From the sequence record PP738785.1: DNA of 64,000 bases; one strand, given 5' to 3'. The position numbers and the translations under genes are program-made. The stretch comes from Klebsiella phage vB_KpnP_Tribble_ER49. The notes below the pieces were generated by a model. It saw only the letters and a program-made list of their open reading frames with translations. It made no database searches and was not told where the DNA came from. Below, piece by piece: positions 31,555-35,391 of this stretch; within the stretch, counting starts at the first letter, position 1, and each line of letters opens with the position of its first letter.

Positions 31555-31573
31555 CATTGCCCTGTGGGCAATG
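31555..31573 (-). promoter_or_regulatory. N4-type vRNAP hairpin promoter (early promoter copy 1)
   Basis: CATTGCCC-TGT-GGGCAATG: 8-bp stem, 3-nt loop with a central G on the template (plus) strand. Predicted +1 is 11 nt downstream at 31553. Confidence 0.6.
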
Positions 31574-31575
31574 TC

Positions 31576-31836
31576 TTAAATAAGAAAGATGGAAGCAAGG
31601 ACAGCTTCATATTCGGCATATTCTGCCGGATCAGTGTTAATGAGAGCTTCGTACTCACGCAGAGTATCAACGCAGTCTTCAGTGAGTTCTTCAGCTATAA
31701 TATTAAGTGCTTCAGCCTCACCTAAATGAGCACACAGATAACTTACAGCACGCATAAATAGCTTCAGTGCTAACTCAACCATGCCACCTTCATAAGCCAG
31801 TTGGCATTGTTCCAGAGTAATATTTACATCGATCAT
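31576..31836 (-). CDS. Hypothetical early protein
   Basis: 86 aa acidic ORF. Confidence 0.35.
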   Translation of the reverse strand: MIDVNITLEQCQLAYEGGMVELALKLFMRAVSYLCAHLGEAEALNIIAEELTEDCVDTLREYEALINTDPAEYAEYEAVLASIFLI

Positions 31837-32126
31837 GAGAATGAGATCCGTTGTTCAAGGATGACAGGAACTCCAATGGCTACTTTAGCCATCAGAGATT
31901 TAATTTCACGCATATCCACTTTGATAGTGAAGTTCTTTTTATGCATACCCATTAATGTAGCTGGGAAGTCCACCACTGCAATACGTGGGAACTTCTCCAG
32001 TGCTACATTGAATTTAGTAATAGTGATAGTGGCATTGATGCCAATGTTGAAGTCACTATAATAAGATATAGTACCTTCACCCAGCATCTTAGAATGCCAG
32101 TTAAATACTTGGTTAGAAGTAGTCAT
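31833..32126 (-). CDS. Hypothetical early protein
   Basis: 97 aa ORF. Confidence 0.35.
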   Translation of the reverse strand: MTTSNQVFNWHSKMLGEGTISYYSDFNIGINATITITKFNVALEKFPRIAVVDFPATLMGMHKKNFTIKVDMREIKSLMAKVAIGVPVILEQRISFS

Positions 32127-32367
32127 TGTCCAGTCTCTCCAGACATAGATACTGACCTTTGCTTATAATAGCGTACTCAGTATCATTGAGAATTAGATAG
32201 TCTTGAGTCCCCAGATTTCTGCTACCATCACGCATCTTGTTTAGTAGTCTTATGTCCTCTGGTTTAATACCAATGGCTAGTTTAGTTTGAATAGTTTTAG
32301 CTTCAGCTTCATCTACCCTAACCATCATTGAGGGATGAATATCCCCAAATACAGCATAGTAGCTCAT
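32113..32367 (-). CDS. Hypothetical early protein
   Basis: 84 aa ORF. Confidence 0.35.
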   Translation of the reverse strand: MSYYAVFGDIHPSMMVRVDEAEAKTIQTKLAIGIKPEDIRLLNKMRDGSRNLGTQDYLILNDTEYAIISKGQYLCLERLDNDYF

Positions 32368-32493
32368 ATTACCCCCATACTGATATTAACCAGTCATACT
32401 CCTCCTGGGTTAATACAGGTTTATATTGCTCAATTACATTGAGTGCATTGTTGAAGTTCTCATTACAGAAGAATGAGATGATTGCAAAGTATT

Positions 32494-32820
32494 TCACCAG
32501 TCTATCTCCTTAAGGTAGAAGCCTTCATCATCTTTATAAAGACGAAAGTCTTTATTACTAATAAAGACTCTTGTAGCAACAATTACCTTTTCGCCCATTT
32601 TAATACGTACTTTGGATACGTGAACCCTTGGTTCAACAATACCAATACTACGTTGCACTTTAACTTTCTTAAGTTCATTATCTGATATTGAATAGATAAA
32701 TGGTTGTTTACCTACATTTTCTTCCCAAAAACGTCTATCATTTTTGGTAGAGCTACTAAGTTCTATTAACATAATTACACCTTGGGTAATTGTTGCATAC
32801 TTGTAGGAGGCGAAGACCAA
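32494..32820 (-). CDS. Hypothetical early protein
   Basis: 108 aa ORF. Confidence 0.35.
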   Translation of the reverse strand: MVFASYKYATITQGVIMLIELSSSTKNDRRFWEENVGKQPFIYSISDNELKKVKVQRSIGIVEPRVHVSKVRIKMGEKVIVATRVFISNKDFRLYKDDEGFYLKEIDW

Positions 32821-33113
32821 CGACCACTGACTACACCTGTGAGTCTTTCTTTGGGTACATACTTCTTAAATTCCCACTTACAGTGTTTATTAAGGAATAC
32901 TTCATACCCTTTAAACAGTTCGTCAGTATCATTACGATCACTGGCAATGTTTCTCTGGTTCTTACGTTTAATACGTGAACCATCGATACAGTACCCATCA
33001 AGAGTACAGCCAATGGCTAAAGCCATCTTTACCTTTTTCAACCATGCATCAGTTGTACGAATATGAATACACTTCTGCATAGCTGGTGCATAGACATAGA
33101 TTATTTTACTCAT
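32775..33113 (-). CDS. Hypothetical early protein, possibly a divergent DUF2829-like copy
   Basis: Internal KKVKMALAIGCTLDGYC resembles the array signature. Confidence 0.3.
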   Translation of the reverse strand: MSKIIYVYAPAMQKCIHIRTTDAWLKKVKMALAIGCTLDGYCIDGSRIKRKNQRNIASDRNDTDELFKGYEVFLNKHCKWEFKKYVPKERLTGVVSGRWSSPPTSMQQLPKV

Positions 33114-33179
33114 AGTAATGTTCCCATAGTAAATAGAGGATTAAGATAAAACCAGATATGTAAGCGAGTAATAACATAT

Positions 33180-33389
33180 TCATTTATTGTCCTGTGGACA
33201 ATATACCTCCCAATCTGTATGTTTTTGAGTTAGAAAGTTTTCTACTGTATCTGTATAGGTATCCCCATTAGAGAATCTAACAAATATTTCTCCTCTTTGG
33301 TTCAGTGTTAGTAGTGTTCCACTATTCCATAGAGGTCTACGTATTACAGCCCCTAGTTTCAGCATTAATAATGCTTCTTTAGAAGTCAT
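33180..33389 (-). CDS. DUF2829-like small protein, array copy 1
   Basis: MTSKEALLMLKLGAVIRRPLW. Confidence 0.5.
   Translation of the reverse strand: MTSKEALLMLKLGAVIRRPLWNSGTLLTLNQRGEIFVRFSNGDTYTDTVENFLTQKHTDWEVYCPQDNK
33185..33203 (-). promoter_or_regulatory. N4-type vRNAP hairpin promoter (copy 2)
   Basis: TATTGTCC-TGT-GGACAATA: 8-bp stem, TGT loop. Predicted +1 at 33183. Confidence 0.55.
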
Positions 33390-33577
33390 ACAATGTACCA
33401 ATTGTGAGAGTCATCGAATATAATTGTGAATTTACTCACTGGAGTAAATATCCTGGAATTATTATCACTACAGTAAATATAGTCTCCTTTGATGTAGTAA
33501 TAAAGATCTTGTTTCATCCAGTCAGCTCTGATTTTACATCCGATCTTCATTGCTAACAGGGCTTCCTGAGTCGTCAT
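33386..33577 (-). CDS. DUF2829-like small protein, array copy 2
   Basis: MTTQEALLAMKIGCKIRADW (start refined to an internal Met). Confidence 0.5.
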   Translation of the reverse strand: MTTQEALLAMKIGCKIRADWMKQDLYYYIKGDYIYCSDNNSRIFTPVSKFTIIFDDSHNWYIV

Positions 33578-33773
33578 ACAATTTCCACTCCATACCTTCG
33601 TATTCTTCGATAAACTTATTAACATTACATACTAGATTACTGAAACTTAAAGTGGTACATACATAACGAATAGAGCTATCCTGTATTTCATAATAAGCAT
33701 CAAAGTCCTCCCATTTAGTGGGAACAACCTTGCAACCTATTTTCATTGCAAGTAGTGCTTCAGCTGTTGTCAT
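33534..33773 (-). CDS. DUF2829-like small protein, array copy 3
   Basis: MTTAEALLAMKIGCKVVPTKW. Confidence 0.5.
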   Translation of the reverse strand: MTTAEALLAMKIGCKVVPTKWEDFDAYYEIQDSSIRYVCTTLSFSNLVCNVNKFIEEYEGMEWKLYDDSGSPVSNEDRM

Positions 33774-33963: not shown

Positions 33964-34162
33964 GATATATCTCCCAATACCCTATACCAGCAGGTATTAA
34001 GTGTTCCAAACTATCTAAAGGTATAAATGGGCTTTGACGCTCACTAAATAGTGTAGAGCCTACTAAATAGATATAAGCACCTGGCCCCCAGCGGCTATGA
34101 CGGATTTTACATCCTATAGCTAATGCTGTTTTAAGTTCCTTTACTGTTGTCAGATTACTCAT
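33932..34162 (-). CDS. DUF2829-like small protein, array copy 5
   Basis: MSNLTTVKELKTALAIGCKIRHSRWGPG. Start refined to the Met at 34162, which has GGAGA upstream. Confidence 0.45.
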   Translation of the reverse strand: MSNLTTVKELKTALAIGCKIRHSRWGPGAYIYLVGSTLFSERQSPFIPLDSLEHLIPAGIGYWEIYHENQGSNTSP

Positions 34163-34242
34163 CCCCTGTCTCCAGTAGATCGATTCACAAGAGTGTTCGG
34201 AGAACACGTTAATAAACTAAGCCCTCCAGTGAGGGCTATTGT

Positions 34243-34515
34243 TTAGTAGGTATATTCAATACGTTTCCAATGCTCAAGGTTGAGCACACCACCATCTTTG
34301 ATATGTTTGAGCATAGTAAGCAGTAATGAATACAGCTTATCCTTCTCACCTTTAATCTCTGATTTAACGTGATAGAACTCTTCACCCATGATGGTTATTT
34401 CAATACGATTGACATACCACTGATGGCCTAAATGATCTTGAATCAGTCTACGAGTGATATGTGGATATGATGCTTCTTTGATAGCTTTACGGTGTAGCTC
34501 TAATTCAAGATCCAT
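34243..34515 (-). CDS. Hypothetical early protein
   Basis: 90 aa ORF. Confidence 0.35.
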   Translation of the reverse strand: MDLELELHRKAIKEASYPHITRRLIQDHLGHQWYVNRIEITIMGEEFYHVKSEIKGEKDKLYSLLLTMLKHIKDGGVLNLEHWKRIEYTY

Positions 34516-34530
34516 AGTTATACCTCTGGT

Positions 34531-34821
34531 TTAATAGCAGAACCAGGCACCACATGATTTACATACGGCACCACCACCATGACCTGATCCAACATTAAGA
34601 TGAATGCAATCAGCATCACCCTGCCATAGGTCATGATTCTTTTTATATGTTTCAATAATGTCAGAGAATCCACTTACGTAGTTCTCTTTATCATCAGTAA
34701 GATCTACATACTGAAACATATCTTCACCAATACCCTGTATCCACTCAATAGCCTGAGCTACAGTTTCAAACTCTTTATAGTTCTCGAAAGTATCAATTAA
34801 CTGATAGTTGATAGTTACCAT
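34531..34821 (-). CDS. Hypothetical early protein with C-terminal zinc ribbon
   Basis: C...H...CKSCGAWFC. Confidence 0.35.
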   Translation of the reverse strand: MVTINYQLIDTFENYKEFETVAQAIEWIQGIGEDMFQYVDLTDDKENYVSGFSDIIETYKKNHDLWQGDADCIHLNVGSGHGGGAVCKSCGAWFCY

Positions 34822-34836
34822 GATTACACCTCTGGT

Positions 34837-35028
34837 TTAATGGGTTGGGATTACTAAAGTATTATGACCAGCAAAGCTGACTTTATTACTATCTTTGATG
34901 AGCACACAGTTATGGTTATCACCATCTTCTGTAGCTTTCTGCCATACATTACGGTCACCATATGCCCATGTCTGGGCAAACATGAACTGAGCACCATCTT
35001 CTAATTCGTCGAATTTAAGTACTTGCAT
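34837..35028 (-). CDS. Hypothetical early protein
   Basis: 63 aa ORF. Confidence 0.3.
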   Translation of the reverse strand: MQVLKFDELEDGAQFMFAQTWAYGDRNVWQKATEDGDNHNCVLIKDSNKVSFAGHNTLVIPTH

Positions 35029-35031
35029 GGT

Positions 35032-35220
35032 TTAATCCTCTAAGTCAGATACGATTTCTTCAACTTGGCTTAATGTTAATTCCAGCTCACACCAGATTTC
35101 ACAGGCATCCATGCCTGATTTCATCATGGATTCTATGTAGGCTCTTAAAGCACTAGCATAGTTAGCACGGGCTTCATCATTCATGATGACCTCACACACA
35201 TTTACGGTAGGCAGACACAA
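35032..35220 (-). CDS. Hypothetical acidic early protein
   Basis: 62 aa ORF. The true start may be the internal MNDEARANY. Confidence 0.3.
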   Translation of the reverse strand: MCLPTVNVCEVIMNDEARANYASALRAYIESMMKSGMDACEIWCELELTLSQVEEIVSDLED

Positions 35221-35372
35221 GGAGTCCTATTAACAGGGCTATGCTGATATAACCATTAGCACCATGATAGAGTGCTGCTTGGATAACTACTGTTGCAGCG
35301 AAAACGTGCAGTGCGAAGATAAATGACTTGGACATAGTTAGTACTCCAATAGGTTAACTGAATACTTCTATA

Positions 35373-35391
35373 CATTACCCTGTGGGTAATA
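35373..35391 (-). promoter_or_regulatory. N4-type vRNAP hairpin promoter (copy 3, leftmost early promoter)
   Basis: CATTACCC-TGT-GGGTAAT(A): 7-bp stem, TGT loop. Predicted +1 at 35371. Confidence 0.55.

Follow-up and report, generated by a model that had tools for sequence, protein, structure and literature searches.

Promoter hairpins read by a virion RNA polymerase (vRNAP) are a hallmark of N4-like phages. To our knowledge, hairpin promoters of an injected polymerase have been experimentally defined in coliphage N4 and in LUZ7 only. This study concerns three hairpins with a TGT loop, termed A1, A2, and A3 (class A), in the early region of Klebsiella phage vB_KpnP_Tribble_ER49 (sequence record PP738785.1), of which a stretch of 64,000 nucleotides (nt), referred to as the window, was analyzed. 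These hairpins are an expected feature of an N4-like genome, are unannotated in the genus Efbeekayvirus, and carry an unusual loop related to the variant found in Cbunavirus. Judging from sequence comparisons, we consider it likely that they are early promoters read by the injected vRNAP.

The N4 hairpins were located in NC_008720 at 96 (P1, TTC loop), 565 (P2), and 4554 (P3). Extrusion and binding in N4 need a loop with a 5′ G and a 3′ A, which form a sheared G:A pair, together with a G at -8 (PMC4496689). In LUZ7, start sites were mapped by ONT-cappable-seq. That study (PMC9163698) describes tandem early start sites 33 nt apart, which are the strongest early starts and begin with a G 13-14 nt from the hairpin center, as well as middle promoters made of a GC-rich hairpin with a stem of at least 6 base pairs (bp), a 3-4 nt loop, and a G start ~15 nt downstream. 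In the same study, promoter classes were set by detection time, not by polymerase dependence. Drc is a single-stranded DNA-binding cofactor of RNAPII in LUZ7, and a Drc-type clade has been described (PMC7145618). Tribble_ER49 is assigned to this clade because its minus-strand gene 31203-31493, the first downstream of A1, encodes a Drc homologue (43% identical to gp021 of CB4 and 29% identical to Drc of LUZ7).

Anatomy and conservation of the TGT-loop hairpins

Three near-identical inverted repeats are read out on the plus strand of the window, as the first-pass annotation of this DNA had reported. A1 (31555-31573) is CATTGCCC-TGT-GGGCAATG with its loop center at 31564, and A2 (33185-33203) is TATTGTCC-TGT-GGACAATA with its loop center at 33194; both have 8-bp stems. 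A3 (35374-35390) is ATTACCC-TGT-GGGTAAT, with a 7-bp stem and its loop center at 35382. The range first given for A3, 35373-35391, contained the hairpin and was 1 nt too wide on each side, as the outer C35373 and A35391 are unpaired. The plus strand is the template of the early genes, which run on the minus strand from ~35335 down to the genes for the small and large subunits of RNAPII, and all three hairpins are intergenic, each ahead of a run of small minus-strand open reading frames (ORFs); on strand and placement alike the earlier description was correct. A1 lies 2 nt past the stop codon of ORF 31576-31836, and A3 is the first hairpin past the terminal non-coding region. The start codons downstream of A1 (Drc), A2 (ATG at 33113), and A3 (ATG at 35335) are 71, 81, and 47 nt away, respectively. 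The template strand reads C-TGT-G at each site, giving a central purine and a 5′C:G3′ closing pair. A (T/A)CATT flank had been proposed for all three; CATT directly precedes the stem at A1 (31551-31554) and A2 (33181-33184), whereas A3 has TATA.

The hairpins form a family of their own within the window. A degenerate 18-mer pattern, YATTRYCCTGTGGRYAAT, searched with at most two mismatches, gives three matches against 0.07 expected, all on the plus strand, and none of 100 shuffles reaches three. The palindrome search suggested in the first-pass annotation thus returns only three copies in the window, all in the early block and none in late-gene coding DNA. Allowing three mismatches adds only the reverse reads of A1-A3 and two non-palindromic chance matches in the window, and 13.5 kb of the genome of Klebsiella phage vB_KpP_FBKp27, most of it beyond the window, held no further copy. 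The core CCTGTGG by itself shows no enrichment in the window (14 occurrences versus 9.2), and the signal therefore resides in the whole hairpin. Only A1-A3 make up a TGT-type family among the 48 perfect hairpins in the window that have a 3-nt loop and a stem of at least 6 bp. Folded as single-stranded DNA, A1, A2, and A3 have energies of -8.2, -5.5, and -4.5 kcal/mol, with z scores of -3.8, -3.3, and -1.7, respectively.

No T-run follows A1, A2, or A3 on either strand, the terminator scan did not call them while calling neighboring terminators, and sigma-70-like sites are not enriched near them. Terminator, sigma-70 promoter, and Rfam readings of A1-A3 were rejected.

Variation among copies and relatives preserves pairing. 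Stem positions 5 and 6 differ between A1, A2, and A3 by paired changes (G:C/G:C/A:T and C:G/T:A/C:G). The A3 orthologue in the related locus L004 (ATTCTCC/GGAGAAT) carries two double changes with pairing kept, and that in L007 (ATTGCC-TACA-GGCAAT) keeps pairing in a 4-nt-loop variant. The stem of A1 is identical in eight of nine close relatives, and the sense-strand loop of class A is ACA throughout nine genomes. Because pairing is kept and the loop is strand-specific, a hairpin acting in single-stranded DNA is favored over a duplex operator.

The arrangement resembles that of N4 P1-P3. Both genomes encode a giant virion RNA polymerase and have three copies in the early block, on the template strand, with the last copy ahead of the RNAPII operon; the copies are inverted repeats whose 3-nt loop is closed by a C:G pair and centered on a template-strand purine. 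The polymerase gene in Tribble_ER49 is the plus-strand ORF that begins at 54186 and is truncated at the window end (54186..64000); the FBKp27 coding sequence annotated "RNA polymerase" encodes 3546 residues. BLASTP aligns this ORF with N4 gp50 at E = 1e-18, and the match includes the motif-A segment EsDGVTNGP. Stems of 8, 8, and 7 bp with conserved pairing are slightly longer than the 5-7 bp of N4. In N4, an A4 spacer separates the stem from +1, which lies 11 nt from the loop center, whereas A1-A3 have neither a G start at 11 nt nor a single-stranded spacer from -4 to -1 and instead have a conserved G at 13 nt.

Counterparts in related genera and predicted start sites

Besides sharing anatomy, strand, uniqueness in the window, and compensatory variation, A1-A3 are syntenic with a hairpin class found throughout the clade. 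The comparison set comprised Cbunavirus, LUZ7, LIT1, Presley, and 66 metagenomic or related loci retrieved by protein anchors. The sense-strand loop of class A varies by lineage, being ATA in Cbunavirus, TAC or TTC in LUZ7, LIT1, and Presley, and ACA in Tribble_ER49. The closing C:G pair, the 3-nt loop, and a downstream T+12 G+13, often with G+14, are common to the clade, and one class-A member always lies ahead of the Drc/RNAPII operon. A1-A3 were scored as carrying the early-promoter signature of the Drc-type clade (C:G closing pair, 3-nt loop, stem of at least 4 bp, and T/G-G at +12/+13), and the positions of A1 ahead of the Drc homologue and of A3 past the terminal non-coding region are those of early promoters in that clade.

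In CB4, C-ATA-G hairpins occur at 89, 912, 1810, 6491, and 6855, the last just ahead of the Drc homologue; NC_048654 lists three of these class-A sites as N4-early-promoter-like stem-loops. The C-TAC-G hairpins of LUZ7 are at 797, 3669, and 3701, of which the latter two are directly upstream of Drc and 32 nt apart, in agreement with the spacing of the tandem early start sites. In LIT1, class-A sites precede gp01, gp02, gp12, and gp13/Drc, and TGG stands at +12..14 in all four. A left-end hairpin, ~86-138 nt from the physical end (N4 P1 is at 96), carries its own genome's class-A loop in CB4 (89), EK8 (2373), and LIT1 (138). This loop is the one that varies between genera, and the TCC loop of a second hairpin class, described below, is constant, which ties the labile class to the DNA that enters first.

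The nearest genus is Cbunavirus (CB1/CB3/CB4, Kc283, EK8), whose RNAPII is 63-66% and whose vRNAP domain is 41-43% identical to those of Tribble_ER49. Its template loops are likewise of the T-R-T type, its +12..14 triplets are TGG, TGA, or TGC, and its hairpins have the same placement relative to the terminal repeat, to a TCC hairpin behind a terminator, and to Drc. The loop center is A (T-A-T) there and G in Tribble_ER49, the Cbunavirus stems, of 4-7 bp, are GC-rich and have a GC/CC core, and that genus has a clean class-A hairpin ~89 nt from the left end, which Tribble_ER49 lacks. LUZ7 and LIT1 (Migulavirinae) share the Drc-type clade, the C:G closing pair, the 3-nt loop, and T/G followed by G at +12/+13, with one site after the terminal repeat and one or two directly ahead of Drc. 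They differ in having a TAC or TTC sense loop (template G-N-A) where Tribble_ER49 has ACA (template T-G-T), in GC-rich stems of 4-7 bp where Tribble_ER49 has 7-8 bp with an AT-rich base, and in TGG at +12..14 where A1 and A2 have TGC and TGA.

A census of the 66 loci gave 309 unique early-region hairpins, 60 of which have sense-strand TGG at +12..14. In the antisense control, TGG is not among the eight commonest triplets, which reach at most 10 each. The loops of the 60 TGG hairpins are TCC, TTC, TAC, ATA, AAG, and TGC. Among metagenomic loci, class-A loop variants in a TGG/CGG start context include AAG in L026 (760, 4451) and TGC in L047 (5987, 7271, 8574), and L050 has an ACA-loop hairpin, CACTTAC-ACA-GTAAGTG, at 864.

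These comparisons bear on where transcription would start. At 11 nt from the loop center, the template is T (RNA A) at A1, A2, and A3, and a start there would have the stem reach -2, with a single unpaired base in front of +1. The template has C (RNA G) 13 nt from the center at A1 and A2 and 14 nt from it at A3, the +12..14 triplets being TGC, TGA, and TAG. Since T+12 G+13 is conserved in the clade and the LUZ7 study places mapped starts at 13-14 nt (PMC9163698), the predicted minus-strand starts are 31551 for A1 and 33181 for A2, each an RNA G 13 nt from the loop center, and 35368 (G) or 35369 (A) for A3. These positions are more likely than 31553, 33183, and 35371, which had been derived from the 11-nt spacing of N4 and have T in the template. 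Whether +1 is 31551 or 31553, translation could not use the upstream ATG at 31553, which leaves the Drc start at 31493 in place. That Met, already chosen in the first-pass annotation, coincides with the start of the FBKp27 coding sequence and is consistent with alignments of Drc homologues.

The Drc 5′ leader contains a small hairpin, AGGCA-ATCC-TGCCT (31534-31547). The CB4 left-end hairpin is likewise followed by the GGCAATCCTGCC string of this leader, and the Drc promoters of LUZ7, LIT1, and L026 by GGCAA. The leader hairpin may be a conserved 5′-leader element.

Candidate polymerases for two hairpin classes

A second hairpin class (class B), with an N4-type GGA loop, lies on the same plus (template) strand and competes for the vRNAP label; the first-pass annotation, which listed only the TGT hairpins, missed it. 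B1 (34193-34207, center 34200) is GTGTTC-GGA-GAACAC, B2 (27359-27375, center 27367) is GATGCCC-GGA-GGGCATC, and B3 (27017-27031, center 27024) is GTGACC-GGA-GGTCAC. B1 is directly behind a terminator at 34220-34237 and ~40 nt upstream of an ATG at ~34158, and B2 and B3 lie downstream of the RNAPII genes, past a strong terminator at 28250-28269. All three have T-G-Y-G-A-R-T at +11..+17. A weaker class-B-like site is centered at 24150. The order of the six hairpins is the same in most close relatives examined, and both classes are seen in Cbunavirus, LUZ7, LIT1, and Presley. Across these phages and many metagenomic relatives, class B always has a TCC sense loop and is GC-rich with a stem of at least 6 bp, typically with one copy within the early block and several after RNAPII. 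The hairpins are probably middle promoters used by RNAPII with Drc, as the layout and the GC-rich stems suggest. A1-A3 share with LUZ7-type middle promoters a stem of at least 6 bp and a G start ~13-15 nt downstream; class B (34200, 27367, 27024) fits that description far better, the TGT hairpins being confined to the early block. The identity of A1-A3 as LUZ7-type middle promoters was rejected, given their AT-rich stem base and their location, all upstream of the RNAPII genes.

Taken together, the comparisons favor a scheme in which class A would be early and read by vRNAP, with class B middle and read by RNAPII-Drc. For class A, we infer early timing and the start site by homology to LUZ7, and vRNAP binding, hairpin extrusion, and the exact +1 at A1-A3 are predictions. 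After DNA entry, negative supercoiling would extrude A1-A3 as cruciforms. vRNAP would bind the hairpin on the template (plus) strand and begin RNA leftwards, probably at the G 13 nt from the loop center. Transcription from A3 would cover the first small ORFs down to the terminator at 34220-34237, that from A2 the block 33113-31576, and that from A1 Drc and, where the polymerase reads past the terminator at 31177-31195, also the RNAPII genes.

Several observations weigh against a vRNAP role for A1-A3. The template loop is G-G-A or G-A-A in N4 and T-G-T here, and the G at -8 in N4 is C at A1, A2, and A3. The first-pass annotation pointed to the longer stems as a departure from N4; the lack of the 5′ G and 3′ A in the loop and the C at -8 matter more. 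The promoter reading that it proposed draws its strength from syntenic hairpins in related genera and from the early starts mapped in LUZ7 (PMC9163698), and is weakened by the loop and -8 requirements of N4. The distance of A3 from the inferred left end, ~975 nt, exceeds that of N4 P1, and the element in the P1 position of Tribble_ER49 (36245-36256) is not a clean class-A hairpin. By folding energy alone, A3 is marginal, its z score being unexceptional. The match of the LUZ7 3669/3701 pair to the published tandem early start sites is deduced from the wording of that paper, and a literature search found no Efbeekayvirus transcriptome. A covariation count over 22 class-A sites gave 93.6% paired positions, reached in 0 of 500 shuffles; the sites had been preselected as hairpins, which makes the count circular, and it was discounted. 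Finally, the loop and closing pair of class B (C-GGA-G on the template) are those of N4 P2 and P3.

This last point makes class B the chief rival candidate for the vRNAP promoter label. If class-B hairpins were the vRNAP promoters, the TGT hairpins would need another reader, for which RNAPII with Drc is the most plausible candidate, and such an arrangement would amplify expression of Drc and RNAPII. The class-B loop is unchanged across Cbunavirus, LUZ7, LIT1, Presley, and many metagenomic relatives, the class has three copies, like N4, and B1 stands immediately behind a terminator and close ahead of a gene start. Moreover, the FBKp27 annotation has no terminator between B1 and the RNAPII genes, so transcription from B1 could in principle reach RNAPII. 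We nevertheless regard this alternative as unlikely. Two of the three copies lie past the RNAPII genes and the strong terminator at 28250-28269, and promoters for RNAPII-Drc cannot fire before Drc exists. In LUZ7, the hairpins directly before Drc have a TAC loop and match the strongest early starts, and the middle promoters of the LUZ7 authors are GC-rich hairpins with stems of at least 6 bp. The left-end hairpin of CB4, EK8, and LIT1, moreover, bears the class-A loop.

Less probable still is that vRNAP reads both classes, class B appearing "middle" only through later DNA entry. The two classes differ in loop (T-G-T versus G-G-A), in stem (AT-rich base versus GC-rich), and in downstream motif (AATG versus TGYGART), and their separate conservation across genera argues for two readers, despite the closing C:G pair, the 3-nt loop, and the G ~12-14 nt downstream that they have in common and despite the LUZ7 classes being based on time of detection. 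That A1-A3 are not promoters at all and serve as duplex operators of a dimeric protein, or as processing hairpins, stabilizing hairpins, or terminators in read-through RNA, is very improbable: they are perfect palindromes in intergenic DNA and A1, so close to a stop codon, would be within any read-through RNA, but half-site changes are always compensated, so that pairing and not sequence is kept, the loop is strand-specific at every site in every genus, as is the conserved T+12 G+13, the hairpins lack the T-run and the call of a terminator, and A3, with ~550 nt of non-coding DNA before it, stands ahead of the gene that opens its block.

Assignment of class A to vRNAP is also compatible with the polymerase sequences. 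The polymerase domain of vRNAP is ~25% identical to that of LIT1-type phages, and RNAPII is 45% identical; together with the higher values for Cbunavirus, these figures show faster divergence of the vRNAP domain than of RNAPII, in keeping with a class-A loop that is labile and a class-B loop that is constant. For the N4 contact residues K114, R119, and W129, located in gp50 with their numbering confirmed, no clear match is seen here in a 10-sequence MAFFT alignment, which at ~20% identity is of low confidence; W129 falls within an N4-only insertion, and R119 stands opposite the D of a "DFAQF" motif. LUZ7/LIT1-type enzymes, whose loops are G-N-A, give the same residue result, and therefore the alignment cannot discriminate loop types. 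A phmmer search of the polymerase-domain region against PDB sequences gave no match, and a homologue search with a 701-residue vRNAP fragment returned none, though close relatives exist in GenBank; both searches are uninformative.

As a tentative proposal, for which we judge the chances to be slightly below even, the vRNAP of the enterobacterial Drc-type branch (Efbeekayvirus, Cbunavirus, and the AAG-loop metagenomic lineage) may have given up the G-N-A triloop on which N4 relies for supercoil-driven extrusion and base-specific binding and may read T-R-T (or C-T-T) on longer stems, with the TCC class retained for use by the second phage polymerase. Loop identity would then be a fast-evolving specificity code separating two hairpin-reading T7-like polymerases in one genome. 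Two hairpin classes in one genome and a class-A loop that varies by genus provide natural specificity variants for the study of hairpin recognition by single-subunit polymerases. Efbeekayvirus is a genus of Klebsiella phages used in therapy-oriented work. Its public records carry sigma-70-style predictions only, and early promoters, starts, and transcription units would improve its annotation; placing early promoters also identifies the first genes expressed.

Early-region genes and neighboring elements

FBKp27 (Schitoviridae, Efbeekayvirus) is 97% identical to window region 30000-37000, and other Klebsiella N4-like phages are 86-92% identical to it. By RNAPII similarity, Cbunavirus is the nearest other genus, followed by LIT1/LUZ7, with N4 distant. 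The first small early ORF downstream of A3 is 35192-35335 (minus strand), in the unit that closes at the intrinsic terminator 34220-34237. An intrinsic-terminator-like hairpin on the minus strand (31177-31195) lies directly 3′ of the Drc gene; because Drc has this terminator of its own, RNAPII expression requires read-through. The block closes with the minus-strand genes for the small (29568-30590) and large (28276-29550) subunits of RNAPII, followed by the strong terminator 28250-28269; all three terminators were called by the scan. The earlier proposal that the TGT hairpins partition the early region into three units is incomplete, as B1 and the terminators at 34220-34237 and 31177-31195 split the block as well.

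The early region is mosaic, with gene cassettes exchanged between relatives while the hairpins stay put. Breakpoints of homology between relatives repeatedly fall shortly downstream of a terminator or a promoter (31163-31165, 34159-34166, and 35333-35336). A ~300-nt segment, 32518-32814, is missing from FBKp27 and present in most other relatives; it holds a perfect hairpin with a 10-bp stem at 32547-32569, AGTCTTTATT-ACT-AATAAAGACT.

The left genome end was placed at ~36357 by homology to the CB4 terminal repeat. Two elements lie ~100-130 nt from it, upstream of the gp001-like ORF 35964-36194. In minus-strand sense, the one at 36245-36256 is a conserved TGAGC-AC-GCTCA with TGG at +12..14, which may be a degenerate P1-type promoter, and the one at 36221-36238 is a GGATGCA-ATGA-TGCATTC hairpin, not clean class A. 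Just outside the inferred end, a small membrane-like ORF on the minus strand (36412-36594) is flanked by direct repeats, TACCCAAATTAG(C/A)(G/A)AAAATTC, at 36368-36388 and 36601-36621 (with 36326-36336 and 36618-36628); these may act as promoters or in packaging. Between the gp001-like gene and A3, the non-coding DNA contains short tandem repeats at 35900-35931 (2 x 16 nt, TGTGTATTGTGTATGA) and 35666-35691 (2 x 13 nt), and its CB4 equivalent has a similar "acacaat" tract. Outside the early region, a cluster of six transfer RNA genes (Gln, Ser, Tyr, Pro, Asp, and Asn) occupies 41752-42442 on the minus strand, within the plus-strand late region.

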